From assembly GCF_000195975.1 (NCBI RefSeq), contig NC_005070.1, positions 1,380,001 through 1,412,000 on the forward strand: 32,000 nucleotides of DNA. The letters run 5' to 3'. Shown here one piece after another: positions 3,032-25,538 of the stretch. Made by a program: the position numbers and the translations under genes. The notes below the pieces were generated by a model. The model ran no database searches. It was not told the DNA's origin and saw only the letters and a program-made list of their open reading frames with translations. Origin of the DNA: Parasynechococcus marenigrum WH 8102 (GTDB lineage Bacteria; Cyanobacteriota; Cyanobacteriia; PCC-6307; Cyanobiaceae). Every line of letters starts with the position of its first letter. Position 1 is the stretch's first letter.

Positions 3032-3136
3032 ATGACCCTGACCTATCGCGGCCAGAAGTACGTCCAGAACAACGCTGCTGCCACCAACAGCAAGCGTCCT
3101 GTTCTTGTGTACCGCGGCCACAAAGTGGCTCAGTAA
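3032..3136 (+). CDS. DUF4278-type cyanobacterial microprotein (34 aa)
   Basis: MTLTYRGQKYVQNN...VYRGHKVAQ carries the M.L.YRG..Y signature typical of DUF4278. An intrinsic terminator follows. Confidence 0.7.
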   Translation: MTLTYRGQKYVQNNAAATNSKRPVLVYRGHKVAQ

Positions 3137-3756: not shown

Positions 3757-3859
3757 GAGCCGATCAGGCCTTGGTCCTGAAGGTCTGGCTGGTACGACGT
3801 CATTCCGTAGCTGATCACACCGCGCGTGCCACCGGTGCCGCAGACAGTGGAAGGGCGGA

Positions 3860-3955
3860 GAAACCTAGGGTTCCGATCCCGTCAGGGATGCCTGGTCCGA
3901 GAGGTTTCGGTCGGTTCTGCCGGCTGCACGGAGGGACAAAAGCCCGGGAGACCGC
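3860..3955 (+). promoter_or_regulatory. Guanidine-I (ykkC/yxkD) riboswitch aptamer
   Basis: Conserved blocks CUAGGGUUCCG (3865-3875), GGUCCGAGAG (3894-3903) and ACGGAGGGAcAAAAGCCCGGGAGA (3928-3951). There is also a GAUCCC/GGGAU hairpin at 3875-3889. It lies directly 5' of a ureohydrolase gene. Confidence 0.85.
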
Positions 3956-3977: not shown

Positions 3978-5168
3978 ATGTCATCCCCAACGGACCCCAA
4001 CGGGGCCTTTCAGCGTTCGCATCCCAGCGAAGGCACTCAGGCGCTCGAGAAGGAACGCAAGCTGCCCCTCACCGGCTGGCAGCAGGAAGTTGATCAGGCC
4101 AAGCGCCTGGGTCTTGAAGCGGCCGAAAGCATCGTGGACCGCAACATCTCCACGTTCTCCCGCGGCGAGCTGCCCCACTTCGCGGGCATCAACACCTTCA
4201 TGAAGGCGCCCTACCTGGAGGATGTGAACCAGGTGGGCAACTACGACGTGGCCATCGTCGGGGTGCCCCACGACTGCGGCACCACCTACCGCCCCGGCAC
4301 CCGCTTCGGGCCACAGGGCATCCGCCGCATCTCGGCCCTCTACACCCCCTACAACTACGAAATGGGGGTGGATCTGCGCGAACAGATCACCCTCTGCGAT
4401 GTCGGCGACATCTTCACCATTCCGGCCAACAACGAGAAGAGCTTCGATCAGATCTCTAAGGGCATCGCCCACGTGTTCGCCAGCGGCGCATTCCCGATCA
4501 TTCTCGGCGGCGATCACTCCATCGGCTTCCCCACAGTGCGCGGCGTCTGCCGCCATCTGGGTGACAAGAAAGTGGGCATCATCCACTTCGACCGCCACGT
4601 CGACACCCAGGAGATCGACCTGGACGAGCGGATGCACACCTGCCCCTGGTTCCATGCCACCAACATGGCCAATGCTCCGGCTGAGAACCTGGTGCAGCTC
4701 GGCATCGGCGGCTGGCAGGTGCCGCGCGAGGGCGTGAAGGTCTGCCACGAACGCGGCACCAACGTGCTCACCGTCACGGACATCACCGAAATGGGGTTGG
4801 AGGCGGCAGCCCAGTACGCGATCGAACGGGCCACTGACGGCACCGACTGCGTTTACATCTCCTTTGACATCGACTGCATCGATGCCGGCTTCGTTCCCGG
4901 CACCGGCTGGCCCGAACCCGGCGGTCTGCTGCCGCGCGAAGCACTCAAGCTGCTCGAGCTGATCGTGCGCAATGTGCCGGTGTGCGGTCTCGAAATCGTG
5001 GAGGTGTCGCCGCCGTACGACATCAGCGACATGACCTCACTGATGGCCACCCGCGTGATCTGCGATGCCATGGCCCACCTGGTGGTCAGCGGCCAGCTGC
5101 CCCGCAAGGACAAGCCGGCCTGGATCAGCGATGTCTGCAACATGAACGTCGATCAGAAGTGGAGATAA
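3978..5168 (+). CDS. gdmH: Ureohydrolase-fold guanidine hydrolase candidate (GdmH / Sll1077-like; arginase-agmatinase family)
   Basis: Metal-ligand blocks GGDHS, FDRHVD and SFDIDCID. The start is set at ATG 3978 because 3771-3977 of the track ORF is riboswitch RNA. Gene order riboswitch-hydrolase-HypA-HypB-ABC matches what I recall for the Synechocystis sll1077 locus. Confidence 0.8.
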   Translation: MSSPTDPNGAFQRSHPSEGTQALEKERKLPLTGWQQEVDQAKRLGLEAAESIVDRNISTFSRGELPHFAGINTFMKAPYLEDVNQVGNYDVAIVGVPHDCGTTYRPGTRFGPQGIRRISALYTPYNYEMGVDLREQITLCDVGDIFTIPANNEKSFDQISKGIAHVFASGAFPIILGGDHSIGFPTVRGVCRHLGDKKVGIIHFDRHVDTQEIDLDERMHTCPWFHATNMANAPAENLVQLGIGGWQVPREGVKVCHERGTNVLTVTDITEMGLEAAAQYAIERATDGTDCVYISFDIDCIDAGFVPGTGWPEPGGLLPREALKLLELIVRNVPVCGLEIVEVSPPYDISDMTSLMATRVICDAMAHLVVSGQLPRKDKPAWISDVCNMNVDQKWR

Positions 5169-5171: not shown

Positions 5172-5570
5172 ATGCACGAAGTCGACATGACCAAGTGCCT
5201 GCTGATCTCCCTCAATGAATGGCGGCAGCGTCGGGACGACGCCAGCGCGATGGTGGAGACCGTCCACCTCGAGGTGGGCCGCTTCACCTGCGTTGAGCCC
5301 GATCAGCTGGTGACCACCTACAACGCCGCGGTGCAGGGCACCTGGCTGGATGGTTCCCGGCTCACCATCACCGACATTCCTTTCGTCGGTCGGTGCCTGG
5401 TCTGCAACAGCACCTACGACCCCGTGCCGGAGAGCGCCTACCGCTCCCCCTGCTGCGATCACCCACTGGAGGAGATCGTCAGCGGCCGTGAACTGCGGAT
5501 CCGCAGCATCGATTACCGCAGTGCGGCCGGCGCTGCCCTTGAGTCCAGCTCCATCCAGCGCATGCGCTGA
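5172..5570 (+). CDS. ghaA: HypA-like Ni metallochaperone (GhaA-like)
   Basis: N-terminal MHE Ni-binding motif and a CLVC...CC Zn site. Starts 4 nt after the hydrolase stop. Confidence 0.75.
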   Translation: MHEVDMTKCLLISLNEWRQRRDDASAMVETVHLEVGRFTCVEPDQLVTTYNAAVQGTWLDGSRLTITDIPFVGRCLVCNSTYDPVPESAYRSPCCDHPLEEIVSGRELRIRSIDYRSAAGAALESSSIQRMR

Positions 5571-5591: not shown

Positions 5592-6326
5592 ATGCACATG
5601 CCCCTCGAGGACACCCTCGGTCTCAACCTCCTCGCCGCCAACCAGCACCAGGCGGAGCACAACCACGAGCATTTCCAGGCCTGGAACCTGCTCTGCCTCA
5701 ACCTGATGAGTAGCCCCGGTGCCGGCAAGACCGCCCTGCTCGAACGCTCCCTGCCGGCGTTGGCCGCCAAACACAAGATGGCGGTCCTGGAGGGCGACAT
5801 GACAACCCAGCTCGATGCCGAGCGTCTGGAAGCCGTCGGCATTCCAGTGGTGCCGATCACCACCGGTCGGGCCTGTCATCTCGATGCCGCCATGGTGAGC
5901 GGCGGACTCACGTTGCTGAAGCAACGCCTGGATCCAACCCAGCTCGATCTGCTGCTGGTGGAGAACGTCGGCAACCTTGTTTGCCCCGCTGAATTCGATG
6001 TGGGGGAACACCACAAGGTGGCCCTGCTCAGCGTCACCGAGGGCGACGACAAACCGCTCAAGTACCCGCTGATGTTCCGCCAGGCGGATGTGGTGCTGAT
6101 CACCAAGGTGGATCTGCTGCCCCACCTGCCGGTGGAGCTGGCGGCGATCCGCCGCAACATCCTCAGCATCAACCCCAACGCCACGGTGATCGAGGTCTCC
6201 GCCCTCAGCGGCGAAGGCCTCGATGTCTGGCACCAGTGGGTGCGGCAGGCCCTTGCCGATCGCACCGCCGTCTCCTCTGCTGCAGCCAGGGCTGCAGACC
6301 AGTCCCCCGCTCTGGCCACCGCCTGA
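5592..6326 (+). CDS. ghaB: HypB-like Ni-inserting GTPase (GhaB-like)
   Basis: His-rich N-terminus (HQAEHNHEH), P-loop SSPGAGKT and [13 protein letters not shown] (HypB/UreG SIMIBI class). Confidence 0.85.
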
Positions 6327-6362: not shown

Positions 6363-7364
6363 ATGACCAAGCAACTCCGCAATCTCCTGATCGCCGGCCT
6401 GGCGATCGTTCTGGCCGTCGCCTGTTCCAAGCCCTCAACCCCAACTTTGGGCGGCACCCCGATCGTTCTCGGCTACAGCAACTGGGCCGGTTGGTGGCCC
6501 TGGGCCATCGCCGTTGAAGAGAAGCTGTTCGAAAAGAACGGCGTGAATGTAGAGATGAAGTGGTTCGACGGCTACGTGCAGTCGATGGAAACCTTCGCCG
6601 CCGGCAAGATCGACGGCAATTCCCAGACCCTGAACGACACCATCTCCTTCCTGCCAGGCGAGAACGGTGGCGAAGTTGTTGTGCTGGTGAACGACAACTC
6701 CGCCGGCAACGACCAGATCATTGCTGACGCCTCGATCACCTCCATCGCAGAGCTCAAGGGCAAGACTGTGGCCGTTGAAGAGGGCGTCGTAGACGATTAC
6801 TTGCTCAGCCTGGCTCTCAAGGACGTTGGCCTCAGCCGTGAGGATGTGGTGATCAAAGGCATGCCCACCGACCAGGCCGCCACAGCCTTTGCCGCCGGGC
6901 AGGTGGATGCCGTCGGCGCCTTCCCGCCCTACACCGGCACCGCCATGCAGCGCGAGGGTGCCCGGGTGATCGCCAGCTCCAAAGAGTACCCCGGTGCCAT
7001 TCCCGATCTGCTCACCGTGAGCGGTGATCTGATTAAGGAACGGCCCGACGACGTTCAGAAGATCGTCAAGACCTGGTGGGACGTGCGCGACTTCATGGAG
7101 AAGAACCCCGAGAAATCGGAGGCAATCATGGCCAAGCGGGCCGGCATTCCCACAGAGGAGTACGAGCAGTACAAGGACGGCACCCGTTTCTTTTCGATCG
7201 ACGAGAACCTGGAAGCCTTCAGCGAAGGCGAAGGCATGCAGTACATGCCCTTCGCCTCGGAATCGATGGCGGAATTCATGGTCTCCGTTGGCTTCATTCC
7301 CGAGACGCCCGACATGAGCAACCTGTTTGATTCCAGCTTCATCAAGAAGGTCGCCGACTCCTGA
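6363..7364 (+). CDS. ABC transporter substrate-binding lipoprotein (NitT/TauT, NMT1-like)
   Basis: Signal peptide with lipobox LAVAC. The YSNWAGWWPW region is typical of nitrate/sulfonate/bicarbonate-type SBPs. Confidence 0.8.
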   Translation: MTKQLRNLLIAGLAIVLAVACSKPSTPTLGGTPIVLGYSNWAGWWPWAIAVEEKLFEKNGVNVEMKWFDGYVQSMETFAAGKIDGNSQTLNDTISFLPGENGGEVVVLVNDNSAGNDQIIADASITSIAELKGKTVAVEEGVVDDYLLSLALKDVGLSREDVVIKGMPTDQAATAFAAGQVDAVGAFPPYTGTAMQREGARVIASSKEYPGAIPDLLTVSGDLIKERPDDVQKIVKTWWDVRDFMEKNPEKSEAIMAKRAGIPTEEYEQYKDGTRFFSIDENLEAFSEGEGMQYMPFASESMAEFMVSVGFIPETPDMSNLFDSSFIKKVADS

Positions 7365-8191
7365 TGACTGCCACTGCCGCCGCTGCATCCAAGGGGAGGG
7401 GCTCAGGGCTCCTCTCTCTGCTCACCCTTGGGGCCACCCCATCGGGGGCCGTGCGTGGCGGCCTGCAGGTCGCCTCCCTGCTGATCCCACTGTTGGCCTG
7501 GGCGGCCATCGCCTCCCTGGGCCTGGTAGATGAGAAGTTCCTGCCATCACCGGGGGCGGTGTTCCGCTCCCTGGCCTCGATGGCCGAAAGCGGCATCCTG
7601 TTCCAGGACATCGTCGCCAGCACCGGTCGGGTGTTCGCTGGCTTTCTGCTCGCCACCGTTCTGGCGGTTCCGATCGGCATCTGCATGGGGGTGTACCCAG
7701 CGGTGTGCGCCCTGTGCGAACCCCTGATCGCCATGCTCCGCTACATGCCGGCAGCAGCGTTCATTCCCCTGCTGATTATCTACCTCGGCATCGGCGAGGA
7801 ACCCAAGATCGCCCTGATCTTTCTCGGCACGATCTACTTCAACATCCTGATGGTGATGGATGCGGTGAAGTTTGTTCCCAAGGAACTGATCGAAACCACC
7901 CTCACCCTCGGCGGCCGCAGCCGCCAGGTGCTGGTGAAGGTGGTGGCCCGTTACAGCCTGCCCAGCATTATCGACACCCTGCGCATCAACATCGCCACCT
8001 CCTGGAACCTGGTGGTGGTGGCCGAACTGGTGGCGGCCGAAGTGGGTCTGGGCAAACGGATTCAGCTGGCCCAGCGCTTCTTCCGCACCGATCAGATCTT
8101 CGCCGAACTGATCGTGCTGGGGTTGATCGGCTTCGCCATCGACATGGGCTTCCGTCTGCTGCTGCGCCTCAGCTGCCGCTGGGCGGTCTGA
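7364..8191 (+). CDS. ABC transporter permease
   Basis: Multi-TM protein of the binding-protein-dependent transport family. Its ATG overlaps the SBP TGA by 1 nt. Confidence 0.85.
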   Translation: MTATAAAASKGRGSGLLSLLTLGATPSGAVRGGLQVASLLIPLLAWAAIASLGLVDEKFLPSPGAVFRSLASMAESGILFQDIVASTGRVFAGFLLATVLAVPIGICMGVYPAVCALCEPLIAMLRYMPAAAFIPLLIIYLGIGEEPKIALIFLGTIYFNILMVMDAVKFVPKELIETTLTLGGRSRQVLVKVVARYSLPSIIDTLRINIATSWNLVVVAELVAAEVGLGKRIQLAQRFFRTDQIFAELIVLGLIGFAIDMGFRLLLRLSCRWAV

Positions 8192-8194
8192 ACC

Positions 8195-8950
8195 ATGGAA
8201 CTGCTGGTTCAGAACCTCTCCAAACAGTTCGGCGACAAAGCCGTCCTCGAGGACATCAACTTCTCGATGCAATCCGGTGAGTTCATCACCTTCGTCGGCA
8301 GTTCCGGCTGCGGCAAGAGCACCCTGCTCCGGCTGATCGCCGGCCTGGATCACCCCAGCGGGGGCCGGATCCACGTCGATGGATCCCCCGTTGAAGGGCC
8401 CGGCCCCGACCGGGGCATGGTGTTTCAGAAATACAGCCTCTACCCCTGGCTGACTGCCGCCGACAACGTCGCCTTCGGCATGCGGCTACAGGGCATGACG
8501 TCGGCTGACGTGCGTAATCGCACCGCCTATTTCCTCGAGGTGGTGGGTCTGCAGGATGCAGCCACCAAACTGCCGAGGGAACTCTCCGGCGGCATGCAGC
8601 AACGGGTGGCGATCGCCCGCGCCCTGGCCACCAACCCCAGCGTGCTGCTGCTGGATGAACCCTTCGGTGCTTTGGACCTGCAGATCCGCGAAACCATGCA
8701 GGAGTTCCTGCTCCAGCTTTGGCAACGCACCGGCCTGACCGTGCTGCTGATCACCCACGACGTGGAGGAAGCCCTGGTGCTGGCTCAACGCGTGCACGTA
8801 CTGGCACCGAACCCGGGCCGGATCATCCGCTCGCTCGAGGTGACCCTGAACAAAAGCGATTTAGATCAGCTGCGCCTCAGCGCTGAGTTCCTGCAGCTGC
8901 GCCGCAGCCTGGCCACCAGCCTGCGGCAGCTGGAACCAACCATCGGGTGA
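8195..8950 (+). CDS. ABC transporter ATP-binding protein
   Basis: Walker A GSSGCGKST, signature LSGGMQQR and Walker B LLLDEP. Confidence 0.9.
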   Translation: MELLVQNLSKQFGDKAVLEDINFSMQSGEFITFVGSSGCGKSTLLRLIAGLDHPSGGRIHVDGSPVEGPGPDRGMVFQKYSLYPWLTAADNVAFGMRLQGMTSADVRNRTAYFLEVVGLQDAATKLPRELSGGMQQRVAIARALATNPSVLLLDEPFGALDLQIRETMQEFLLQLWQRTGLTVLLITHDVEEALVLAQRVHVLAPNPGRIIRSLEVTLNKSDLDQLRLSAEFLQLRRSLATSLRQLEPTIG

Positions 8951-10002
8951 TGAAGGCTCCGCAACGGTTTCTGCCGGCCCAGGCCTATACCGATCCGGAG
9001 TTGTATCGCTGGGACTGCAGCGGTTACGCCCAGCGCTACTGGCATCCCCTGGTCGCTGGATCGGCCCTGCCGGCCGGCCACAGCCTGGCTCTAACCCTGC
9101 TGAATCAGCCCCTTCTGCTCACCCGAGCCGAGGACGGACCCCCCCGCGCCTTTCTCAACCGCTGCCCCCACCGCGGCGTGGCCTTCCAGCACGAACGCGA
9201 GGGAGCAACCGCCTGCCGTCGCCTGATCTGCCCGTACCACGGCTGGACCTACAGCCTGGAAGGGGAGCTGCTGGCCGCGGCGCGCGAGCAGGGCTTCGAT
9301 CCCCCCTTCCATCGCCAGGACTGGCCGCTCCCTTCCCTGCCTTGCCGCGAGGATGGCCCCTTGATCTGGGTCGCACTCACCCAGGCGGTGACGCCCCTGG
9401 ACCAGCAGCTCGACCTGGTGCATCAACGGGTGGCGGACCTCTGGACCCAGCCCCTCCATCAGGTGCGGATCCTGCAGCGCACCCTGCGCTGCAACTGGAA
9501 GATCGCCCACGACAACACCCTCGACGACTACCACGTCGCCGTGGCCCATCCAACGACTCTGCACCGCGAACAGGGGCCGGTGCGCGATTACGTCCACCAC
9601 ACCACGGCCCTGGTGAACCTGCTGGTGACGCCCCACGCCGATGGCGGTTGCTTTCACACCTTTGGCCTGCCGCCCTGGCTACATCTGATCACCTGGCCGG
9701 ACGGCCGTCTGGCGTTGTTGGAGTTTCTGCCCCTCAGCCTCGACAGCTGCTGCATGCAGTTGCGGCTGTTCGCTCCCAGCGCAGCCAGCGGCGAACCGCC
9801 GACGGATGCGGCCAACAAAGCCTGGTTGAAAGAGCTGCTGGCCTTTTTGGACGAGGACCAGCCCCTGGTCGAATCCGCTCAGCGCGGCTACCGCAGTGGA
9901 CTCGTGCCCGGTCCACCCCACGGGCTCGAGCAACGGATCATCCACTGGCAGGAGATCTACCGACAGGTGCTGCCCAAAGAGCTGGCCCAATCGCTCAGCT
10001 GA
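8950..10002 (+). CDS. Rieske [2Fe-2S] non-heme-iron oxygenase, alpha-subunit type
   Basis: Rieske motif CPHRG...CPYHGW and mononuclear Fe motif DDYHVAVAH (D-x2-H-x4-H). ATG 8950 overlaps the ATPase TGA by 1 nt; the track starts it at GTG 8947. Confidence 0.85.
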   Translation: MKAPQRFLPAQAYTDPELYRWDCSGYAQRYWHPLVAGSALPAGHSLALTLLNQPLLLTRAEDGPPRAFLNRCPHRGVAFQHEREGATACRRLICPYHGWTYSLEGELLAAAREQGFDPPFHRQDWPLPSLPCREDGPLIWVALTQAVTPLDQQLDLVHQRVADLWTQPLHQVRILQRTLRCNWKIAHDNTLDDYHVAVAHPTTLHREQGPVRDYVHHTTALVNLLVTPHADGGCFHTFGLPPWLHLITWPDGRLALLEFLPLSLDSCCMQLRLFAPSAASGEPPTDAANKAWLKELLAFLDEDQPLVESAQRGYRSGLVPGPPHGLEQRIIHWQEIYRQVLPKELAQSLS

Positions 10003-10039: not shown

Positions 10040-10780
10040 TCACACCGGAACCGGTGAGCGCAGCTCAGCATGCAGCGCATCCCAGAAACGCTTGCGATCC
10101 TCGATCACCTGGCGCTTCACCTGCTCCACCCGTTGCATCGCCTTGGCGTCGTCCCCCACTAGGGCCAGCACCATTGCCTCGGCCAACGGGCCATGGCTGT
10201 CGCCATCGAGGGCGATGTGGCGTTCGAGGTACCAGCACAACGTTGGACAGGGCAACGCCAGGGCCTGCAGTCGCTTCAGCAGCGCACGGAACAGATCCGG
10301 CACCAACAGCTCCCGGCCGTAGGCAAACGCCGCAGCCAGGGCATGGCTCTCACCATCCTGAATCAGCACCTGCGTGGTAGTGAGAAAACGGGCTGCAGCG
10401 GGCGGGATCCGCGGGTGTGGCACAGCGCTGCCGAGATCACCGGCCATCGCCTGCTGCAGCACCGCGTCGATGGCCGAGGTGTCGGCACCGATCTCCACCA
10501 TCGCCCGGCGGTAGATGCCGAAATGGGACAGATGCAACGGGCCACCGAGGGCCTCAGGCAGACAATCACACTCCTCCTCCGCCACCAGGCTGTTGATCAA
10601 CCCGGCGCTGCGCGGATGCTTGGGCGGCACCCAGGGAACACCGGATGGTGCCAGGTGCTGCTGCAGCGCCTTGAGCAACAACATGAAGTCCCACACCGCA
10701 AACACGTGGTGTTCAACGAACACCCGAAGATCTGCGATAGAAACAATCGCCTCCGGCAAGGGATGGCGCTGGAGATCCAT
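10040..10780 (-). CDS. DUF3050-family protein (heme-oxygenase-like fold)
   Basis: VEHHVFAVWDFMLLLKAL near the N-terminus is the pattern I associate with DUF3050. 246 aa, all-helical composition. Confidence 0.65.
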   Translation of the reverse strand: MDLQRHPLPEAIVSIADLRVFVEHHVFAVWDFMLLLKALQQHLAPSGVPWVPPKHPRSAGLINSLVAEEECDCLPEALGGPLHLSHFGIYRRAMVEIGADTSAIDAVLQQAMAGDLGSAVPHPRIPPAAARFLTTTQVLIQDGESHALAAAFAYGRELLVPDLFRALLKRLQALALPCPTLCWYLERHIALDGDSHGPLAEAMVLALVGDDAKAMQRVEQVKRQVIEDRKRFWDALHAELRSPVPV

Positions 10781-10782: not shown

Positions 10783-11250
10783 TCAGAGGCCCAGTTCCGT
10801 CAGACCCGGGAAATCATCGGGTCTTGGGCCATCACCCCAGGTGAACAGGAGATCGCCCTCCGCGATCGGCACGTCGTTGATGCTGGCCTCACGCCGGCGC
10901 ATCAACCCGTTCTCGGCAAATTCCCAGTTCTCGTTGCCATGGGCGCGAAACCACTGCCCCTCGGCGTCATGCCACTCATATTGGAAACGCACAGCGATGC
11001 GGTTACCGGAACACGCCCACACTTCTTTGATCAATTTGTAGTCCAGTTCCTTCGCCCACTTGCGTTGCAAAAAAGCGAGAATCTCAGCCCGGCCGTGGAT
11101 GAATTCACTGCGATTGCGCCAGACACTGTCCTCCGTATAGGCCAATGAAACCTTGTCTGGATCCTTGCTGTTCCACGCATTTTCGGCCATCCGTGCCTTC
11201 TGCTGCGCGGTTTCGAGGGTGAACGGTGGAAAGGGAGGTTTTCCGGTCAT
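10783..11250 (-). CDS. DUF1348-family protein (NTF2/SnoaL-like fold)
   Basis: [43 protein letters not shown] matches the DUF1348 N-terminal pattern. Ends 2 nt before the DUF3050 start. Confidence 0.7.
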
Positions 11251-11295: not shown

Positions 11296-11622
11296 TCAGG
11301 GCAACTGACTGATCACCCGCACGTTCTGATCGGGCTTGTAGCGGGCAATCCACTGGCGCAGCTGGGATTCCTCTTCGTCCGTGCGGGTGCAGGCAAATCC
11401 ATAGCGGGCACGAACCCGTTCGGAAGCAGCCCGCAGTGCCCTGACACCCAACGATTCCAGTTCCGACACCCGAAATGAATCGCCTGGTTTCAGATACTCA
11501 AGAATCACAGTTGATGGTGAATACAACGTGCTGGATTGGCCATCCGGCCATTCCAACTGAAAGCGAACCTCAGGCATCCATCCGTACACATTTGTTGGAT
11601 CCTGCAACAGGCCATTCGGCAT
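11296..11622 (-). CDS. MSMEG_0570-family nitrogen-starvation-response protein (Nit1C member, NitG-equivalent)
   Basis: 108-aa ORF from ATG 11622 (MPNGLLQDPTNVYGW...), 7 nt after the AIR-synthase-like stop. Assigned by position and size in the Nit1C order. Confidence 0.6.
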   Translation of the reverse strand: MPNGLLQDPTNVYGWMPEVRFQLEWPDGQSSTLYSPSTVILEYLKPGDSFRVSELESLGVRALRAASERVRARYGFACTRTDEEESQLRQWIARYKPDQNVRVISQLP

Positions 11623-11629
11623 CGCTGTC

Positions 11630-12607
11630 TCATCCGCCACAGCCGAATCCGGTGAGTCCGCTCGCCACCTCCCAGAGGCAATGCGACGCCCCGGAGATCT
11701 GCAGCAGCACCCGGCATTCACCGGTGCTGAAGCGACCGATCCGACAGCAGATCAGGTCCGGATCGCCCTGCAGCATCCTCACCAGGGTTGACGTCCGGGA
11801 CGGATCCACGGCCAGCAAGTAGCCGAAGCTCGGGAAACAGCTGAGCCAGGCCTGTTCCTCCACCCCATCAGGGCGGTCCACCGCATCCAGATCGATGCTG
11901 AGCTCCAGGCCACAGGCTTCGGCAAACATCACCGACGTTCCCGTCAGTCCACCCATGCTGATGTCCTTGGCAGCGCGCACCAGGCCCTCAGCCGCCAGTG
12001 CCGGCAGCAGGCTCAGATGGGAGCGCAGTCGAGCTGGGGTGGCATGGGTGGCCGCATCCCAGAAGGGGTAATGGCGGTAAAAGGCTCCGTTTTTGTTCAC
12101 GAGCATCCACAGTTCGTCGCCGGGTGCTGCCGCCCGGGCGGAGAGCACCGGCCCCTCTGCCACCCCAAGAACGGCAACCGACAACGCTGTGTAGGGACTC
12201 TGTTGATTGGAATGCCCCCCCACCATCGGCACCCCGAAGCTCTCACAGGCGAATCGCATCCCCTCCAGCAGAGGCTGCAACGCATCTGCACCACCACTCC
12301 AGACACTGTTAACCAACGCCAGCGGTCGACCGCCCATCGCCGCGATGTCGCTCAGATTCACCAGCACACCGCTCCAGCCGGCAAACCACGGGTCCTCCTC
12401 CACCAGCCCAGGTTGCATGCCCTCACAGGCCAGCAATAGCTGGCCGTTCTGGCGAGGAAGCAGAGCGGCATCATCCCCCAGCATCCCCGCTGCACCAAGC
12501 TGCGGGAACGGCTGGTGGCAAAACATCCCGGCCGCTGGCTGAATGTCGCGTTTGGCCAGCAGACCGCTGTGCAGCCGCAGCCCATCCATCAGCTCGGTAA
12601 AGCTCAT
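11630..12607 (-). CDS. sll0787-type AIR-synthase-like (PurM/HypE superfamily) protein
   Basis: GDDAALL motif and PurM-like two-domain length. Its ATG overlaps the GNAT stop (ATGA). Confidence 0.8.
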   Translation of the reverse strand: MSFTELMDGLRLHSGLLAKRDIQPAAGMFCHQPFPQLGAAGMLGDDAALLPRQNGQLLLACEGMQPGLVEEDPWFAGWSGVLVNLSDIAAMGGRPLALVNSVWSGGADALQPLLEGMRFACESFGVPMVGGHSNQQSPYTALSVAVLGVAEGPVLSARAAAPGDELWMLVNKNGAFYRHYPFWDAATHATPARLRSHLSLLPALAAEGLVRAAKDISMGGLTGTSVMFAEACGLELSIDLDAVDRPDGVEEQAWLSCFPSFGYLLAVDPSRTSTLVRMLQGDPDLICCRIGRFSTGECRVLLQISGASHCLWEVASGLTGFGCGG

Positions 12608-13275
12608 GCGGCAAGGGATGGCAGGAGCGAACATGACGGCCGCCGCTCCCGCGACGGCGCGTAGTAATTGAGATCGGCCTGCATCAGGTGATGCCGGATG
12701 CCACGGATCTCGAGTTCCTCAATCGAGGCCCAGTGCAGACGGCGAAAGAAACGCACGTTCTGAATCTGCACCATGGCCATGAAACGATCACAGCCCCAGC
12801 CGTTGGCGGTGGTGACCGCCTTCCAGATCAACCCCTTGCCGATCTGGTTGTGACGGCGAAAGTCGCTGTGCACCCCGAGCCGTCCGCCATACCAGAGCCG
12901 TGGTTCGGTCTCCACGATCCGCACCACACCCACCACCTGGGATTCCGGGCCCTGCTTATCTTCGTCGGGTTGACAGTCGTGATGCAGGGCCGCGATCGGA
13001 CAGGCGATGCGGTCGAGTTCATCCCGATCGGACTGTTCGAACACGTGCTGCTCTTCGCAGAAGATGCTGCGCCGCAACGACCAGTAACCCGCGATCAGGG
13101 GCGAATCGGGACGCAGCAGGTGAAAGCTGAACCGATCCGAACTGGCGGTGGGCGACAGGCGGAAATCATCGGCGTCGATGCCGATGCCAGCCCGCACCGA
13201 AGGGGTGAACAGGCTGGGGGCGGAGCTGATGCTGCGGCCGATGCCACGGCTGCTGGGATCGAGACAGAACACCAT
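12604..13275 (-). CDS. MSMEG_0567/Sll0786-type GNAT N-acetyltransferase
   Basis: GNAT motif A-like RRHNQIGKG. Start ATG 13275 lies 2 nt after the radical SAM stop. The longer track ORF (to 13512) would overlap the upstream gene. Confidence 0.75.
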   Translation of the reverse strand: MVFCLDPSSRGIGRSISSAPSLFTPSVRAGIGIDADDFRLSPTASSDRFSFHLLRPDSPLIAGYWSLRRSIFCEEQHVFEQSDRDELDRIACPIAALHHDCQPDEDKQGPESQVVGVVRIVETEPRLWYGGRLGVHSDFRRHNQIGKGLIWKAVTTANGWGCDRFMAMVQIQNVRFFRRLHWASIEELEIRGIRHHLMQADLNYYAPSRERRPSCSLLPSLAA

Positions 13276-13277
13276 GG

Positions 13278-14369
13278 TCAGGCCGCCTGCTCGAACAGCG
13301 ACAGCGCCGAACAGGCTCCACATTTGGCGCAACCGGCCGACATCGCCTCGGAGCGCAGATCTCCTTGGTGCAGCAGCTCGGCAACCCCCTTGTAGACGTC
13401 GACCATGAAGGCTGTGTCCGGTGCCGGATGGTGCTCCAAGGGTGTGCCGGAGATCGGCACAAACGGAACCACAAACGGGTAGACCCCCAGTTCGATCAGG
13501 CGGCGGCTGCAATCGAGCAGTGCCTCCCGGCTGTCGCCCAGGCCGGCCAGCAGATAGGTGGACACCTCTCCTCGCCCGAACACGGCGACAGCATCGGCGA
13601 AGGCCGCGTAGTAACGCTCGAGGCTGAGCTCCGATTTGCCCGGAAGGATGCGACGCCGCACCTCCAGCTCCACCACCTCGAGGTGCATGCCGAGGCTGTC
13701 GATTCCCGCAGCCTTCATCCGCTCGTACCAGATCGGATCATCGGGGGGTTCGCACTGCCCCTGGATCGGCAGATCGACCCGACGCTTCACCGCCGCGGCC
13801 GTCTCGGCCATCAGCCGGGCGCCGCGGTCATCGCTGTTGGGGGTGCCGGTGGTCATCACCAGCTGCTTCACACCATCCAGGCGCACCGCAGCTTCCGCAA
13901 CCTCGGCCACCTGCTCCGGGGTCTTGCGGATCACCGTGGCGCCGTCCTCAAGGGACTGCTCGATGGCGCAGAACTGGCAGGACTGGGAGCGATCTCGGAA
14001 GCGGATACAGGTCTGCAACAGCGTGGTGGCCAGCACATCTCGGCTGTGCAGCAAGGCGATGGAGCGGTAGGGGATCCCCTCCGCCGTGCTCAGGCCATAG
14101 AAGGCCGGTTCATCTGTGGTGGTCACCACAGGCAGGGCGTCCTGCTGAGGACCGGTCAGGGTCAAGCCGTCACCACGTGCCGCCAGGCTGTACGCCGATG
14201 AGCCGGAGACGTCGTTGTAAACGGGCACCATCACCGTGGTGCCATCCACATTCAGGGCCCTGTGGTCAGAGGGGCCAGCCCCGCCGCGCCGGCCCCGGTT
14301 TCCCTCCAGTGGTTCGGCCCGAACCCCCTTCACCTGCAGTTCGGTCACCAGGCGTCCGAGCTCAGACAT
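13278..14369 (-). CDS. MSMEG_0568-type radical SAM protein
   Basis: Cys cluster [14 protein letters not shown] and a TIM-barrel-like rSAM core (VMTTGTPNS). Its start overlaps the nitrilase stop by 8 nt (ATGTCTGA). Confidence 0.8.
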
Positions 14370-15378
14370 GGTTGATCTCCTCGATCACATGGGACATCCC
14401 GGCGGCCATTGACGTTTCGGCCATCGACGTTTCGGATGGAACCGGATCGCTCGCCATCTCCTGCATCGCTACGGCCGTGTTGCGATTGATCCGCAGCGAC
14501 AACAGTTCCGGACGGCTGTAATGGCCGACGCTGTCCATCATTCGCTTGCGCTTGGTGATCAAGGCCAGATCGAGTTCGGCGATGGCCAGGCCTTCACCGT
14601 CCGGCAAGGGACCCGCCAGGTAGCGGCCTTCAGGACTGATCACAGCGGTGTGACAGCCCCCTTGAAACGCCTTGTGCAACGAAGCATCTGGCGTGATCGC
14701 CGCATAGTCCTCCGGATCCAGCCATCCGGTGGAGCAGATCACGAAACAGCCAGCCTCCAGGGCGTGATGCCGCATGGTAACGGCGGTCTGCTCGCTGAAG
14801 ATCGGCCCGACCAGCGACCCGGGGAACTGGGCGCAGTGGATCTCCTCGCCCTGGACCATCAACGCGTAGCGCGCCAGCGGGTTGTAGTGCTCCCAGCAGG
14901 CCAACGCCCCGACCCGACCAAGCGGGGTGGACACCACCGACAGGCCGGAACCGTCCCCCTGCCCCCACACCATCCGCTCGTGATAAGTGGGAGTGATCTT
15001 GCGGCGCTTGAGAGCGATCTCGCCGCAACTGTTGAACAGCAACTGGGTGTTGTAGAGCGTGCCACCGTCCCGTTCGTTCACCCCCAGCAACACCTGCATG
15101 CCGTGCTGCCGTGCGGCCGCTGCCACCGCATCCGTGACCGGTCCGGGCACCACCACAGCCTGGTCATAGAGCGCCAGGTGGGAGCGCCCCATGCGAACCG
15201 GGGGCTCAACAAATGAGAAGTAGGGGTAATAGGGCAGGAACGTCTCCGGAAAGACGATCAGCTCAACGCCTTCGGCCGCCGCTTCGGCCATCGCGTCGAG
15301 CACCTTCTGAAGAGATCCATCCAGGCTGAACAGGACGGGACGGATCTGGGCAGCGGCAACTTTGACAGTGGTCACCAT
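14362..15378 (-). CDS. Nit6803/Nit1C-type nitrilase
   Basis: Catalytic triad contexts FPETF (Glu), [12 protein letters not shown] (Lys) and ACWEHYNP (Cys). Confidence 0.9.
14406..14435. repeat. Tandem 15-nt duplication inside the nitrilase 3' end
   Basis: ccattgacgtttcgg / ccatcgacgtttcgg with 1 mismatch. It encodes [10 protein letters not shown] in the C-terminal tail. Confidence 0.9.
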
Positions 15379-15398
15379 GAAATAGGTACGACGCCGAC

Positions 15399-15881
15399 TC
15401 AGAGCGTCCAGGTGTCGAGGATGAAGGCCCCTTCCTTGCGATGCATCAGCACGATGTCGAGCACATCAAGGGGATTCACCGGGGTGATGCCCGGCATGAG
15501 CGCCTTCTCGCTGTGTCCGTAAAGCGCCTGCAGAGCGAAGCGACAGGCGTACACCTTTCCCCCCTGATCCATGAACTTCTGCAGCCGTGCGTTGAAGTTC
15601 AGGTGACCATCAAAGGCGGCATCACCGAGCTTGGGGAATCCACGCATCACACCGAGGGTGACGCCAGGGCCATAGAGCAGAACAGAGGTTTCAAACCCTT
15701 TGGTGATCAGACGGCTGGCCTGCAGAAGATTGACCAGGCCAATAGAACCTTCGAAAGCAACGGTGTGAAACGTGACCAAGGCCTTTTCACCCGGCTCAGC
15801 CTTCACATCGGGAAAGACTTTTTCCTCGTAGTCAACAAGATAATCCCCCGGCTGGTTAGCGGGACGGTCGACGACAGGCAT
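15399..15881 (-). CDS. MSMEG_0572/Sll0783-family nitrogen-starvation-response protein (first gene of the Nit1C string)
   Basis: 160 aa from ATG 15881 ([18 protein letters not shown]...). The track's TTG-initiated 212-aa version would consume the divergent promoter region. Confidence 0.7.
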
Positions 15882-16067
15882 GTGAAGAAACCATAAGGAC
15901 TCAAAGACTGGCTCCGGTCGGCCCACAAAAAATGTACGAAATACGACCAAATTCGAGACTGAATCAAACTGGATGACAGCGGGAGCGCAATCAAATTCGG
16001 TGGCCTTGGCTACAACACAAGTGTTGATTTCAAACAAGGATTAGGGCATTAAGTCATGTGCTGATTG

Positions 16068-17378
16068 ATGCTGCACAGCGCGCATGATGTCGCCCGATTC
16101 AAGTCCGATCATGCGGTTGTGGTGATCGGAGCCGGTCAGGCCGGACTTTCGGTGGCCTATCAGTTGCAGCAAAGGGGCATCCGTCCTGTGGTGCTGGAAA
16201 AGCACCGCATCGGATACGCCTGGGATCAGCAACGCTGGGATTCTTTCTGCCTGGTCACCCCCAACTGGCAATGCCGCTTGCCGGACTTCCCCTACGACGG
16301 CAACCAGCCCGAGGGGTTCATGCCCAAGGCAGAGATCGTGGCGTACCTGCAACGCTTCGCGCGGCACGTGGGTGGAGATGTGCGCGAGGGGGTCGCCGTT
16401 CAACGGCTGACCCCGAAAGGCAGTGGTTATCGGCTGATCACCAGCGAAGGCGAGATGGAGGCTGAACATGTGGTGGTGGCCACCGGCGGGTATCACGCCC
16501 CCCGGCGCCATCCCCTGGCCGAACGGCTGCCGGCCTCCGTGCTCCAACTCGATGCCCGTGCTTACCGCAACCCGGCGGCGCTACCGGAAGGCCCCGTATT
16601 GGTGGTGGGCAGCGGCCAGTCCGGCAGCCAGATCGCGGAGGACCTGCACCTGTCCGGCCGCACCGTGCACCTCAGTGTGGGCAGCGCCCCTCGATCCCCA
16701 CGGGTGTACCGCGGCCGGGATGTGGTCGATTGGCTGGACCGGATGGGCTACTACGCCATGCCGATCAGCGACCATGCCGACCCCCGCAGCGTCCGCGCCA
16801 AAACCAACCACTACCTCACCGGTCGCGATGGTGGCCGTGAAATCGATCTGCGCCATCGCGCCACCGAGGGCATGCGTCTGCATGGCCGTCTCGCAACCAT
16901 CGCCACTGACCACATCGGCTTTGCCGATGATCTCGCCGGCAACCTCGATCAGGCCGATGCGGTTTATTGCCGCATCCGCAGCAGCATCGACAGCTGGATC
17001 CAGCAGCAGGGCATCGAGGCCCCCCTCGAGCCCCCCTATTCCCCCTGCTGGCAACCATCAGCGATGGCCGACCCCGGCATCGATCTCAGCCGGGATCCAC
17101 TCGCTGCGGTGATCTGGTGCACCGGGTACCGCAGCGACTTCAGCTGGATCGATGCTCCGGTGTTCGATGGTGCCGGCCTGCCGGCCCATGAGCGTGGGGT
17201 CACCCAGAGCGCGGGGCTCTACTTCCTTGGTCTGCCCTGGCTGCACACCTGGGGATCCGGTCGCTTCTGCGGCGTCAGCGACGATGCCGACTACCTCGCG
17301 AGGCTGATCAGTCTGCGGCTGCAACGCCGCGATGCCAGCCAGGAGCGGCTGGAGTGCACCGCGATCCTGGGCTCCTGA
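16068..17378 (+). CDS. MSMEG_0569-type flavin-dependent oxidoreductase (class B monooxygenase-like)
   Basis: Two dinucleotide-binding motifs, VIGAGQAGL and VVGSGQSGSQ. Divergent from the Nit1C string. Confidence 0.85.
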   Translation: MLHSAHDVARFKSDHAVVVIGAGQAGLSVAYQLQQRGIRPVVLEKHRIGYAWDQQRWDSFCLVTPNWQCRLPDFPYDGNQPEGFMPKAEIVAYLQRFARHVGGDVREGVAVQRLTPKGSGYRLITSEGEMEAEHVVVATGGYHAPRRHPLAERLPASVLQLDARAYRNPAALPEGPVLVVGSGQSGSQIAEDLHLSGRTVHLSVGSAPRSPRVYRGRDVVDWLDRMGYYAMPISDHADPRSVRAKTNHYLTGRDGGREIDLRHRATEGMRLHGRLATIATDHIGFADDLAGNLDQADAVYCRIRSSIDSWIQQQGIEAPLEPPYSPCWQPSAMADPGIDLSRDPLAAVIWCTGYRSDFSWIDAPVFDGAGLPAHERGVTQSAGLYFLGLPWLHTWGSGRFCGVSDDADYLARLISLRLQRRDASQERLECTAILGS

Positions 17379-17385: not shown

Positions 17386-18228
17386 TCAACGCATGGAGTT
17401 GTGCAGGGCGGTGCGGAGCCAGGAGGCCATCTGTGTGTTGAGACTGGCGACATCAGCCACCGGTTCAGCACTGAAGGGCTGCAGTGGCATGTAGCCATCA
17501 GGGCCGAATTCAGGCGTGATCGTGGCCGGCGCCTTCTCCTGATCAAACGATTCCAGAAAGAATTGCCAACAAGAGCGATGAGCCTCCAATGCTTCGGTCC
17601 ACTCCGGCGCAAAGGGATGGCTGACTGAGGGGCCCTGGGCATGACCGACCCGTGCATGGATGTGGTCGACCCGCCCTGCCATGGCCTGCACCGGTAGGAG
17701 ATCAGGCGTCATCAACCGCTCGGCAACACAACACCAATGGCTCAGGTCTGCCGTGAGCCGCATCCGTGGATGTCGCTCCAGCCACACCGGCATCTGCCAG
17801 GGGTTAGCCAGGCTCCGGCTGCGATGGGTCTCCAGCATCACGGCGCATGGCACGGTGTCGATGCGGTCGAGAACAGCCTTGAAAAAACGATGCTGGACGT
17901 CCTCAGACCAGCTGTCACTGCCAATGATCAGATTGATCTTGAGCGGTTCCATGGCCAGCGCACGACTCAGCAACGCCTCAAGTTGTTCGAGATGCTGTTC
18001 GGGACCATGGGCCAGATCTGGGGTGTAGCCGCCCCCAGTCGTGATCTCGAGGATCAGCGCTTGCCTTCTCTTGCCGAGGAGCTGCCGAACATCCGTTGCA
18101 TCAATCCGCTCCAGACACGAATGAACCACATTGCATTCGAGACCATCAAATCCGTGAGTTGATGCACGGCTGGAAGCTGACTCGAAAGAACCATTCCAGC
18201 CCCAGAGAGATTGCAGCAACAACACCAC
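17386..18228 (-). CDS. Sugar-phosphate isomerase/epimerase-like (xylose-isomerase-like TIM barrel) protein
   Basis: Length and pattern are typical of AP-endonuclease-2/xylose-isomerase-like TIM barrels. The start is placed at GTG 18228, 1 nt after the upstream micro-ORF stop; the ATG of the track ORF at 18312 would overlap that ORF. Confidence 0.55.
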   Translation of the reverse strand: MVLLLQSLWGWNGSFESASSRASTHGFDGLECNVVHSCLERIDATDVRQLLGKRRQALILEITTGGGYTPDLAHGPEQHLEQLEALLSRALAMEPLKINLIIGSDSWSEDVQHRFFKAVLDRIDTVPCAVMLETHRSRSLANPWQMPVWLERHPRMRLTADLSHWCCVAERLMTPDLLPVQAMAGRVDHIHARVGHAQGPSVSHPFAPEWTEALEAHRSCWQFFLESFDQEKAPATITPEFGPDGYMPLQPFSAEPVADVASLNTQMASWLRTALHNSMR

Positions 18229-21501: not shown

Positions 21502-22983
21502 ATGATCGACCTCCCCCCCATCTGCGGCCGTGAATCTGAGCTGATGCAACTGATGCAGCAGCAGCAGCCACCGATCTGGAGGCACCACAGCAATCTCGAT
21601 CTCAGCCGCATCCGCTCCGGCTTCGCCTGCGCGCTGCACATGCATCAACCCACGGTGCCTGCCGGAGCGAACGATGCCCTGATCTCCCATCTGCAATACA
21701 TGGTTGAGCATCCGGGAGAAGGCGATAACCACAACGCCGAACCGTTTGCTCAGTGCTACCGCCGCATGGCGGATCTGATCCCGGATCTGATCAGCAGAGG
21801 CTGCAACCCGCGAATCATGCTCGATTACTCGGGCAACCTGCTCTGGGGTGTCGGGCAGATGGGCCGTGAGGACATCACCGGAGCCCTGCGATACCTCGCC
21901 TGTGATTCAGAGATGCAGCGGCATGTGGAGTGGCTTGGCACGTTCTGGAGCCATGCCGTTGCTCCCTCCACACCGATTCCTGATCTGAAGCTGCAGATCA
22001 TGGCCTGGCAACACCAGTTCGCAACGATGTTCGGTGATGCCGCGTTGCAACGCGTCAGGGGATTTTCTCCACCGGAGATGCATCTCCCCAACCATCCGGA
22101 CACGCTGTTTCAGTTCATCCTTGCCCTGAAGCAATGCGGCTACCGCTGGCTGCTAGTGCAGGAGCACAGCGTTGAAACCCTGGACGGAACACCGCTGGCA
22201 CAGGAGCAGAAACACCTCCCAAACCGCCTGATGGCCCGCAACAGTTCCGGGGAAACCATCAGCATCACGGCGCTGATCAAGACCCAGGGGTCGGACACCA
22301 AACTCGTCGGCCAGATGCAACCCTGCTACGAAGCGATGGGGTTGCAACCCACGACGTTGGCGGGGCGAGAAATACCACCGCTGGTCAGCCAGATCGCCGA
22401 TGGTGAAAACGGTGGCGTGATGATGAACGAGTTTCCAGCTGCCTACTGCCAGGCCAACGAACGGATCCGGGACGACAGCAATGGAACCGTGGCCATCAAC
22501 GGCACGGAATACCTCGAGCTGCTTGAAGCCGAGGGTATCTCCGACGACGAATGTCCTGCCATTCAGGCGGTTCAGCAACAGCGGCTGTGGAATGCCGTCG
22601 GCGCAACCCTCAACCGCCAGACCGTGGAGGAGGCGATCGATCGGCTGGCAACAGCCGGTGATGGTTTCTCGATGGAAGGAGCCTCATGGACCAGCAACCT
22701 CAGCTGGGTGGCTGGGTACGAGAACGTGCTGGAGCCGATGAACGAGCTGAGTGCGCGCTTCCATCAGCGATTCGACGCCGCGGTGAACAGCGAGCCCAGC
22801 CTGACGGGCACATCCAGCTATCGGGACGCTCTCCTGCACCTCCTGCTGCTGGAGACCAGCTGCTTTCGCTACTGGGGACAGGGCACCTGGACCGACTACG
22901 CCAGAACGCTGTATCGACGCGGGGACGCTTTGTTGCAGCAGATGCCAATCAATGGCCCGGACACAGCAGACGCCCTTGGATGA
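21502..22983 (+). CDS. Glycoside hydrolase family 57-like protein
   Basis: N-terminal ALHMHQP block typical of GH57. 493 aa. Confidence 0.65.
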   Translation: MIDLPPICGRESELMQLMQQQQPPIWRHHSNLDLSRIRSGFACALHMHQPTVPAGANDALISHLQYMVEHPGEGDNHNAEPFAQCYRRMADLIPDLISRGCNPRIMLDYSGNLLWGVGQMGREDITGALRYLACDSEMQRHVEWLGTFWSHAVAPSTPIPDLKLQIMAWQHQFATMFGDAALQRVRGFSPPEMHLPNHPDTLFQFILALKQCGYRWLLVQEHSVETLDGTPLAQEQKHLPNRLMARNSSGETISITALIKTQGSDTKLVGQMQPCYEAMGLQPTTLAGREIPPLVSQIADGENGGVMMNEFPAAYCQANERIRDDSNGTVAINGTEYLELLEAEGISDDECPAIQAVQQQRLWNAVGATLNRQTVEEAIDRLATAGDGFSMEGASWTSNLSWVAGYENVLEPMNELSARFHQRFDAAVNSEPSLTGTSSYRDALLHLLLLETSCFRYWGQGTWTDYARTLYRRGDALLQQMPINGPDTADALG

Positions 22984-25322: not shown

Positions 25323-25487
25323 TCACACCTTGGCCTTGCGCAGATTGCCCAGGTCGTGGGCCAACTCCCGCAAGCCGGTCACGAACCCGATGCTGGCAAC
25401 GCTCACGATCCCCACAATGATCACGGTCTCCAACAGAGCGTGGGGATCGTTGAGCAGGGCGGTCCAGGCGCTGGTGAGTGCTGTCAT
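25323..25487 (-). CDS. Possible 54-aa membrane microprotein
   Basis: [54 protein letters not shown]. The longer track ORF would overlap the DUF2130 start. Confidence 0.35.
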
Positions 25488-25538
25488 CTCGTCAGAATCT
25501 GCGTTCTCCTGTTGGTAGCAACACCTTCGTCTGAGGCC

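Follow-up and report, generated by a model that had tools for sequence, protein, structure and literature searches.

Few bacterial gene clusters that lack a known reaction are conserved as widely as the Nit1C cluster, one copy of which is described here. Our study concerns positions 11296-17378 of a 32,000-nucleotide stretch of Parasynechococcus marenigrum WH 8102 (contig NC_005070.1, positions 1,380,001 to 1,412,000), which we refer to as the window. On the evidence of its protein families it is essentially certain that this region is the canonical seven-gene Nit1C cluster in intact form, with nitH transcribed divergently from nitB-C-D-E-F-G. We propose, at a probability of roughly 0.55, that the cluster is a nitrogen-scavenging module induced by nitrogen starvation, in which the nitrilase NitC frees ammonia from a nitrile that the other proteins capture or generate. 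Our searches of the literature on Nit1C, on the Synechocystis and Mycobacterium smegmatis locus tags, and on nitrilases together with radical S-adenosylmethionine (SAM) enzymes found the substrate, the product and the roles of the accessory genes nowhere resolved, in agreement with an earlier sequence-only reading of the same DNA, which had called the substrate, the product and the roles of the non-nitrilase genes unresolved.

Identity and arrangement of the cluster

Six consecutive open reading frames (ORFs) occupy the minus strand at 11296-16037 and one divergent ORF occupies the plus strand at 16065-17378. The window ORFs were scanned with NCBIfam profiles and judged by the curated cut-off of each model; the Nit1C families used were TIGR04042-04046, 04048 and 04049. 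Each of the seven ORFs matches exactly one model of the MSMEG_0565-0572 / sll0783-0787 system above its cut-off. Along the minus strand these are nitB (15399-16037; TIGR04044, 268.8 bits against a cut-off of 109.85), nitC (14362-15378; TIGR04048, 572.8 against 502.6), nitD (13278-14369; TIGR04043, 571.6 against 303.7), nitE (12604-13512; TIGR04045, 214.7 against 68.45), nitF (11630-12634; TIGR04049, 425.1 against 321.3) and nitG (11296-11721; TIGR04042, 114.9 against 79.85); on the plus strand the remaining ORF is nitH (16065-17378; TIGR04046, 646.2 against 498.35). Pfam is concordant for the proteins that it models (CN_hydrolase, Radical_SAM, Acetyltransf_1, AIRS/AIRS_C and Pyr_redox_3/FMO-like), and its scan of the window proteins gave no model matching NitB or NitG. 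The sequence-only reading had seen here a full Nit1C cluster with the minus-strand order Sll0783-like protein, nitrilase, radical SAM enzyme, GNAT acetyltransferase, AIR-synthase-like protein and MSMEG_0570-like protein, and had suggested a profile search as a check; that search places all seven proteins in the expected families above the curated cut-offs (7/7), and the order holds.

The cluster itself has been described before. Nit1C was defined by Podar et al. (2005; PMC1199592) from seven genomes, Synechococcus sp. WH8102 among them, and the flavoprotein on the opposite strand of the WH8102 cluster was already reported there. Doré et al. (2023; PMC10119275) treated nitHBCDEFG as a seven-gene unit of marine Synechococcus and Prochlorococcus, mapped it globally and found it enriched in warm, Fe-replete, nitrogen-poor waters, with a guanidinase unit adjoining it; Panwar et al. 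(2022) drew the cluster of Ca. Regnicoccus likewise, followed by ntf2 and DUF3050 genes. The feature has thus been on record in the same lineage and arrangement, and at the level of the cluster there is essentially no difference between the window and the cyanobacterial Nit1C of the Podar and Doré papers, which shares its seven families, their order and the opposite-strand position of the flavoprotein. What our analysis adds to those two papers is a pair of conserved NtcA-type boxes, the start of nitG, and a likely read-through of the transcript into DUF1348 and DUF3050.

The host is a clade-III-type marine Synechococcus that carries the form of the cluster without a glycosyltransferase. The exact nitrilase sequence is present on chromosome LN847356.1 (GCA_001182765.1) and in many marine assemblies; the window is 99.62% identical to LN847356.1 over 21 kb and 100% identical to a Logan contig over 21 kb, and the closest loci are all from marine Synechococcus. 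For the wider comparison, 80 genome loci were fetched with an alignment of twelve NitB sequences, and the window proteins were mapped onto them by tblastn. At least 596 species genomes encode a NitB relative, and the order B-C-D-E-F-G is found in nearly all of the 80 loci, from picocyanobacteria to alphaproteobacteria and myxobacteria. The divergent nitH followed by nitBCDEFG is common to all Synechococcus, Cyanobium and Prochlorococcus loci that have sufficient flanking sequence; elsewhere nitH lies upstream in either orientation (other cyanobacteria) or last (proteobacteria and myxobacteria). The suggestion that the genes stand together by chance, or are a decayed remnant rather than a single functional unit, deserves next to no credence and is refuted by the family matches, the recurrent synteny and the conserved residues: all ORFs are intact with their catalytic residues conserved, 80 loci of several phyla show this gene set in this order, and the identical nitrilase is found on contigs of 106 blocks of the assembly collection.

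Probable nitrogen control of the divergent promoter

The genes nitH and nitB are separated by a 186-nt divergent intergenic region (15882-16067), which holds two NtcA-type boxes within 15934..16013. Box 1 (16013..16000, minus-strand reading GTAGCCAAGGCCAC) and box 2 (15947..15934, minus-strand reading GTCGTATTTCGTAC) each have one mismatch to GTA-N8-TAC, and when the intergenic regions of 36 picocyanobacterial loci are aligned, the only blocks of the spacer conserved at 80% or more are GTA...AC and GT...AC. At least one NtcA-type site is present in 34 of the 36 picocyanobacterial loci, against 17.0 +/- 3.0 and a maximum of 27 in 1000 shuffles, a figure that is no probability since the loci are related. 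About 22 nt downstream of the second box is another short motif, a possible -10 element. Chromatin immunoprecipitation sequencing in Synechocystis has placed two NtcA peaks, which overlap, in the bidirectional sll0783/slr0821 promoter and identified the operon as a direct NtcA target; the two-box pattern of the window agrees with these two peaks, and the bidirectional NtcA control of Synechocystis PCC 6803 matches the window. Podar et al. (2005) reported no conserved sites, whereas the lineage of the window has this conserved pair.

Induction of the cluster by nitrogen starvation has been reported in three phyla. The M. smegmatis homologues (gpr) are induced more than 500-fold in a GlnR-dependent manner, and in Pseudomonas the regulator is the sigma-54 activator NitA. 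A Pseudomonas-like sigma-54 promoter was considered for the window and rejected: TGGCAC-N5-TTGCW, with up to two mismatches allowed, has 17 matches against 23.1 expected, none of them in 15882-16067, and no NitA-type regulator was identified among the scanned window ORFs of at least 150 aa.

These regulators bear on the proposal that the cluster serves purely to detoxify cyanide or nitriles, such as the defence compounds of grazers or plants, with any gain of nitrogen incidental. Detoxification of defence compounds was proposed by Podar et al. (2005), Doré et al. (2023) do not exclude it, and cyanide induces the cluster in Pseudomonas. Its expression in three phyla is governed, however, by nitrogen status (NtcA, GlnR and a sigma-54 activator) and not by toxin sensors, the NtcA-type boxes are conserved across the picocyanobacterial loci, and ammonium represses expression. 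Because control is by nitrogen status, detoxification alone appears to us a doubtful account of the cluster.

The Nit proteins

NitC, NitD and NitF all look active, as judged from the conservation of the nitrilase tetrad, the radical SAM cysteines and the GDDxA motif. NitC (14362..15378, minus strand, 338 aa) is a branch-1 nitrilase of the Nit6803 family (TIGR04048; CN_hydrolase at 194 bits), and its E45/K127/C161 triad, which the sequence-only reading had correctly picked out, is kept together with E134 in at least 97% of 76 homologues.

NitD (13278..14369, minus strand, 363 aa) is a radical SAM protein of the MSMEG_0568 family (TIGR04043; Pfam Radical_SAM at 45.8 bits). All of 71 sequences keep its cysteines C121-X9-C131-X2-C134 (CX9CX2C) and C206; C347 and C353 are cysteine in 69 of the 71, the other two being gaps, and C350 is cysteine in 68. 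The canonical CX3CX2C was not found in NitD, where position 127 is never a cysteine among the 71 sequences, and we count the protein as a variant-motif member of the superfamily because Pfam Radical_SAM still matches it. The seven cysteines probably fit a radical SAM cluster together with an auxiliary [4Fe-4S] cluster. NitD is weakly related to LipS2 and HmdB, and a sequence search of the PDB with NitD found no solved relative. The iron demand of the enzyme fits the absence of the cluster from low-Fe waters (Doré et al., 2023).

NitF (11630..12607, minus strand, 325 aa) is an AIR-synthase-like protein of the Sll0787 family within the PurM superfamily (TIGR04049; AIRS and AIRS_C), with conservation of GDDxA (G44, D45, D46 and A48; the ATP-site motif), D87 and H132. 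Its nearest solved structures are ThiL, SelD, PurL, PurM and HypE, of which HypE is a weak match (E 1.3e-3) and ThiL, SelD and PurL score higher. HypE, an ATP-dependent enzyme of the PurM superfamily, dehydrates a cysteine-bound carboxamide to a cysteine-bound nitrile in the synthesis of the cyanide ligands of [NiFe]-hydrogenase. Any analogy to the HypE/HypF system is confined to NitF and to the shared superfamily: no cysteine is conserved among 62 NitF sequences, the cysteine in the C-terminal GFGCGG of the window protein included, and no HypF-like carbamoyltransferase was identified among the scanned window ORFs. NitF, lacking a conserved cysteine, therefore cannot carry an intermediate on itself as HypE does, and we rejected such self-carried chemistry. 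The nearest outside family of NitF is 'Methanogenesis marker 2', for which a literature search gave no functional lead, and no second AIRS-like module was found hidden in the window.

NitH (16068..17378, plus strand; ATG 16068 follows TTG 16065) is a flavin-dependent oxidoreductase of the MSMEG_0569 family that resembles class B flavin-containing monooxygenases (FMOs), as indicated by TIGR04046 and by the Pfam models Pyr_redox_3, FMO-like and Lys_Orn_oxgnase. Two GxGxxG dinucleotide-binding motifs, GAGQAG and the conserved G181-x-G183-Q-S-G186, support the earlier description of a divergent two-Rossmann flavoprotein. The nearest solved structures are the type II flavin monooxygenases 4a9w, 4c5o and 4usr, and the block WxxRWxxFCLVTPNWQCxLP presumably corresponds to a YUCCA/FMO-type monooxygenase motif, which it resembles. 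The conserved C61 and C69 and a weak match to YpdA raised the candidate of a disulfide reductase, which is unlikely given that type II FMOs are its closest solved relatives and that the block appears YUCCA/FMO-like.

NitB (15399..15881, minus strand, 160 aa) belongs to the MSMEG_0572/Sll0783 family; the TIGR04044 profile starts at residue 55 of the ORF, and the start is taken at M53. It is by far the best-conserved member of the cluster, well ahead of every enzyme in it: identity across the loci is 79-98%, where NitG has 32-82% and NitF 40-73%. The protein has 2764 homologue clusters and is about 80% identical across phyla. The protein is exactly 160 aa long from marine Synechococcus through Tistrella, Xanthobacteraceae and Polyangiaceae, and the alignment of twelve NitB sequences contains a single invariant cysteine, Cys113. 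A sequence search of the PDB with NitB found no relative. NitB models as a DsrE/YchN-like fold: a moderate AlphaFold2 model (predicted local distance difference test (pLDDT) 66.6, predicted template-modelling score 0.66) has DsrE/DsrF-like or related structural-genomics proteins as eight of its top nine Foldseek matches in the PDB (E 4e-6 to 3e-3), with 3mc3, 3pnx, 1l1s and 2hy5 among the matches to a model of only this quality. The YchN-like/DsrE assignment of the family was reported earlier, by Podar et al. (2005) and in the M. smegmatis gpr work.

NitE (12604..13275, minus strand, 223 aa) is a GNAT protein of the MSMEG_0567/Sll0786 family (TIGR04045). It carries an N-terminal extension of about 55 aa (13113-13275), with the pattern ..DPSS..IGRS.SSAP..FTPSVR.G..I...DF.LSP.., which is present in Synechococcus, Cyanobium and Prochlorococcus and missing from other cyanobacteria and from proteobacteria. 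NitG (11296..11577, minus strand, most likely 93 aa) is an MSMEG_0570-family protein (TIGR04042) with an invariant YSPS motif and one invariant cysteine, C63 in the 93-aa numbering, across 52 diverse loci. The family comprises only 310 representative clusters, free-standing at about 93 aa apart from a few fusions. The AlphaFold2 model of NitG is confident (pLDDT 82.7), and its comparison with the PDB found no similar fold.

Several of these proteins occur joined to one another. NitG and NitH form a single ORF in two myxobacterial loci (L069, 11976-13493; L070, 15306-16862), and the 536-aa protein P0306 is a NitG-NitH fusion that matches TIGR04042 at residues 2-80 and TIGR04046 at 118-512. In two fragment-like proteins (P0359 and P0374) the C-terminus of NitF is followed by NitG, and the names of the NCBIfam models TIGR04045 and TIGR04050 imply a fusion of the GNAT and AIRS-like parts in MSMEG_0567. 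Since fusions thus link E, F, G and H and the genes are translationally coupled, the Nit proteins probably form a physical complex.

Function of the cluster

The scavenging reading rests on the nitrogen regulators of three phyla, the NtcA-type boxes, the genetics of cyanide utilization, the ocean distribution and the setting of the cluster in the window. In Pseudomonas, nitC is required to grow with cyanide as the only source of nitrogen, and purified NitC homologues are true nitrilases in vitro. Both physiological links named in the sequence-only reading, to nitrogen starvation in Synechocystis and to growth on cyanide in Pseudomonas, are found in the literature, the former as NtcA control.

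Under nitrogen limitation NtcA would bind the two boxes of the 186-nt divergent promoter and switch on nitH and the coupled nitBCDEFG, with transcription probably reading through into DUF1348 and DUF3050. NitC would convert a nitrile to a carboxylate and NH3; the other six proteins, working with NitC as one unit and probably as a complex, would take cyanide, or some other compound of nitrogen, and either trap it as a nitrile or turn it into one. In this scheme NitH may act as an NAD(P)H/O2 flavoenzyme, NitD as a radical SAM enzyme with two Fe-S clusters, NitF as an ATP-dependent PurM-type enzyme, NitE as an acyl-CoA transferase, NitB as a DsrE-like thiol protein and NitG as a 93-aa cysteine protein. 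The catabolic direction and the formation of a complex are inferred, as is any carrier role that the invariant cysteines may have.

Several points weigh against nitrogen scavenging. The purified NitC homologue studied by Jones et al. (2021) was poor on free cyanide and modest on its best nitriles, and these authors doubt that simple nitrogen provision is the sole role of NitC, the physiological role of which, in their words, 'remains unclear'. The need of nitrile hydrolysis for a radical SAM enzyme, a GNAT protein, an ATP-dependent enzyme and a monooxygenase is unexplained, and the conserved gene set includes no transporter. Many clusters carry a dedicated glycosyltransferase, which is biosynthetic in look: a GT4 enzyme of the MSMEG_0565 family (TIGR04047, 470 bits) is found in about 20 of the 80 loci, all of them outside the picocyanobacteria, mostly placed between nitF and nitG but in a few of these loci at another site near the cluster. 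The redox phenotypes of mutants arise, moreover, with no nitrile added. Deletion of the whole cluster in M. smegmatis lowers NADPH/NADP and peroxide resistance, and a Synechocystis sll0783 mutant has lower NADPH/NADP.

The same mutants and the same glycosyltransferase speak for the main rival explanation, in which the cluster, together with the MSMEG_0565 glycosyltransferase where present, makes a small molecule or cofactor for redox homeostasis during nitrogen starvation, and the nitrilase processes a nitrile intermediate or serves as a scaffold. The combination of a radical SAM enzyme with an auxiliary cluster, a GNAT protein, a PurM-like enzyme and an FMO is typical of tailoring pathways; the DsrE-like protein and the weak relation of the twin-cluster NitD to LipS2 and HmdB hint at sulfur chemistry; and Jones et al. 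raise a 'possible biosynthetic function' and speak of a metabolon built around a nitrilase filament. Against this, our literature search found no product detected over 20 years, the strongest genetic phenotype is failure on cyanide as a nitrogen source, and the field distribution tracks nitrogen scarcity. The glycosyltransferase is dispensable in picocyanobacteria and absent from the listed Pseudomonas nit genes; a tblastn search of the window with the protein of locus L052 gave a best E of 0.84, and the gene is also absent from the picocyanobacterial loci L001-L039. We consider a biosynthetic role possible and take it seriously, at odds well short of even.

Nitrogen scavenging could also proceed on a protein. 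NitG, with its single invariant cysteine, its fusion to NitH and the NitF C-terminus ahead of it in two fragmentary proteins, suggests itself as a carrier, such that Nit1C would act on a protein-bound intermediate and not on a free metabolite. A C-N one-carbon unit would be built or captured on the NitG thiol; once NitH had oxidised that thiol, cyanide might for instance give a Cys-S-C≡N thiocyanate or a thioimidate. NitF would contribute ATP-dependent amide-to-nitrile chemistry of the HypE kind, NitB would serve as a second thiol or persulfide relay, and the nitrilase would release NH3 and CO2. Cyanotrophs have long been reported to convert cyanide to CO2 and NH3 in a manner that depends on O2 and NADH. 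We regard the carrier as a speculative and improbable refinement; if true, it would give a molecular basis for the cyanide conversion of cyanotrophs and would explain the poor activity on free nitriles.

Gene junctions and extent of the transcript

The junctions were read directly off the sequence. The nitB stop is followed after 20 nt by the ATG of nitC; nitC and nitD overlap by 8 nt in CATGTCTGA (shared stretch ATGTCTGA); nitD and nitE are joined as TGA-CC-ATG, with a gap of 2 nt; and nitE and nitF share ATGA. With the upstream ATG at 11622, nitF and nitG would be joined as TGA-GACAGCG-ATG, with a gap of 7 nt. The 15 residues after this ATG vary freely, however, and in the alignment conservation sets in sharply from MPEVRFQLEW; the TIGR04042 profile begins at the second Met of nitG, and nearly all of the 150 best NitG-family representatives match from their own residue 1. 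For these reasons nitG likely starts at ATG 11577, giving 93 aa and a gap of 52 nt to nitF in place of the 108 aa from ATG 11622. Of the very tight junctions described in the sequence-only reading, the 8-nt overlap, the 2-nt gap and the ATGA overlap stand, and the 7-nt gap between nitF and nitG, which depends on the non-conserved upstream ATG, does not. The 2-nt gap between nitD and nitE stands because the 48 residues of nitE ahead of the GNAT profile are conserved from Synechococcus to Prochlorococcus.

The co-directional run continues past nitG, with DUF1348 45 nt on and DUF3050 a further 2 nt beyond it. Folding of the spacer between nitG and DUF1348 gave no terminator (only -2.4 kcal/mol, z = -0.1), and shuffled sequences give hairpins as good as those after DUF3050. 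Given a 45-nt spacer with no hairpin and the 2-nt gap between the two DUF genes, the nitB-G transcript probably reads through to DUF1348 and DUF3050, to make a unit of eight genes. A scan for intrinsic terminators found 3 terminator-like sites against 4.9 expected and a scan for sigma-70 promoters found no promoter-like sites, both methods being uninformative for cyanobacteria. The overlaps, the conserved synteny and the lack of an excess of internal terminators favour co-transcription indirectly.

Neighbouring genes

The first gene past nitG encodes a 155-aa DUF1348 protein of the SnoaL/NTF2-like type (10783..11250, minus strand; PF07080, 218 bits). DUF1348 adjoins Nit1C in 11 of 82 loci and takes four positions across the cyanobacteria: behind nitG in the picocyanobacteria, behind nitF (L041), between nitC and nitD (L067) and upstream of nitH (L076). 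This recurrence in four positions argues for a functional tie to Nit1C rather than chance, and DUF1348 is a probable accessory gene on the nit transcript. The next gene encodes a 246-aa haem-oxygenase-like DUF3050 protein (10040..10780, minus strand; PF11251, 244 bits, with a weak match to Haem_oxygenas_2); PF11251 is labelled HamA_HO-like in the precomputed Pfam matches. DUF3050 is a companion of Nit1C in L001-L003, L006 and L022 alone, all of them marine Synechococcus or Regnicoccus loci. The literature does not count DUF1348 or DUF3050 as part of Nit1C.

Beyond DUF3050 lies a guanidine-degradation unit on the plus strand, under riboswitch control. A guanidine-I riboswitch (3854-3952, plus strand; 87.5 bits against a gathering score of 63) precedes an arginase-family gene, which passes the agmatinase model marginally (176.7 against 174.3) and is followed by HypA-like, CobW/HypB-like, NMT1-type ABC transporter and Rieske oxygenase genes; the genes of the unit are at 3978-5168, 5172-5570, 5592-6326, 6363-8950 and 8947-10002. 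The Rieske gene is convergent with the end of the nit operon, and the unit matches the guanidinase unit of Doré et al. (2023). Beside it a glutamine-II riboswitch (2950-3011, plus strand; 68.7 bits against a gathering score of 33) brings the nitrogen-sensing elements within 13 kb of the nit promoter to three, and directly downstream of this riboswitch is an ORF of 34 aa (3032-3136, plus strand; MTLTYRGQKYVQNNAAATNSKRPVLVYRGHKVAQ) with a repeated YRG motif.

On the other side of the cluster, a 280-aa ORF (17386-18228, minus strand) converges on nitH; it has no Pfam or NCBIfam match, and tblastn found it in only two near-identical loci. A 493-aa ORF at 21502-22983 (plus strand) has no Pfam or NCBIfam match. 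The window also encodes a DUF2130 protein (25356-26906, plus strand) and a cytochrome P450 (815-2059, plus strand).

Comparison with characterized systems

The nitABCDEFGH genes of Pseudomonas oleovorans (pseudoalcaligenes) CECT5344 and P. fluorescens NCIMB 11764 comprise the same seven structural families as the window and, likewise, no listed glycosyltransferase. In Pseudomonas nitH comes last on the same strand and the sigma-54 activator gene nitA is adjacent, whereas in the window nitH is divergent and NtcA-type boxes take the place of that control; DUF1348 and DUF3050 are extra in the window. The M. smegmatis gpr cluster (MSMEG_0565-0572) has homologous families and strong induction by nitrogen starvation, and its MSMEG_0572 was already noted as a DsrE-family protein. 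It differs from the window in comprising eight genes, with the MSMEG_0565 glycosyltransferase, a GNAT/AIRS-like fusion implied by the model names and control by GlnR, where the window lacks a glycosyltransferase and keeps nitE and nitF as separate genes; the reported gpr phenotype concerns peroxide resistance and the NADPH/NADP ratio. In the aldoxime-nitrile clusters (subfamily 2 of Podar et al., 2005) a nitrilase is co-transcribed with its nitrile-making enzyme. In contrast to these, the window lacks an aldoxime dehydratase, and its accessory enzymes are entirely different.

Significance

The window copy is a textbook instance of Nit1C, and it does not make the old question of the cluster's chemistry newly testable. 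The NtcA-type boxes, the fusion-linked cysteine proteins, the twin-cluster radical SAM enzyme and the recurrent DUF1348 may nevertheless help in the design of experiments. Most Synechococcus cells in warm, nitrogen-poor, Fe-replete ocean waters carry the cluster (Doré et al., 2023), and the substrate of Nit1C therefore bears on the nitrogen pools that support marine primary production.

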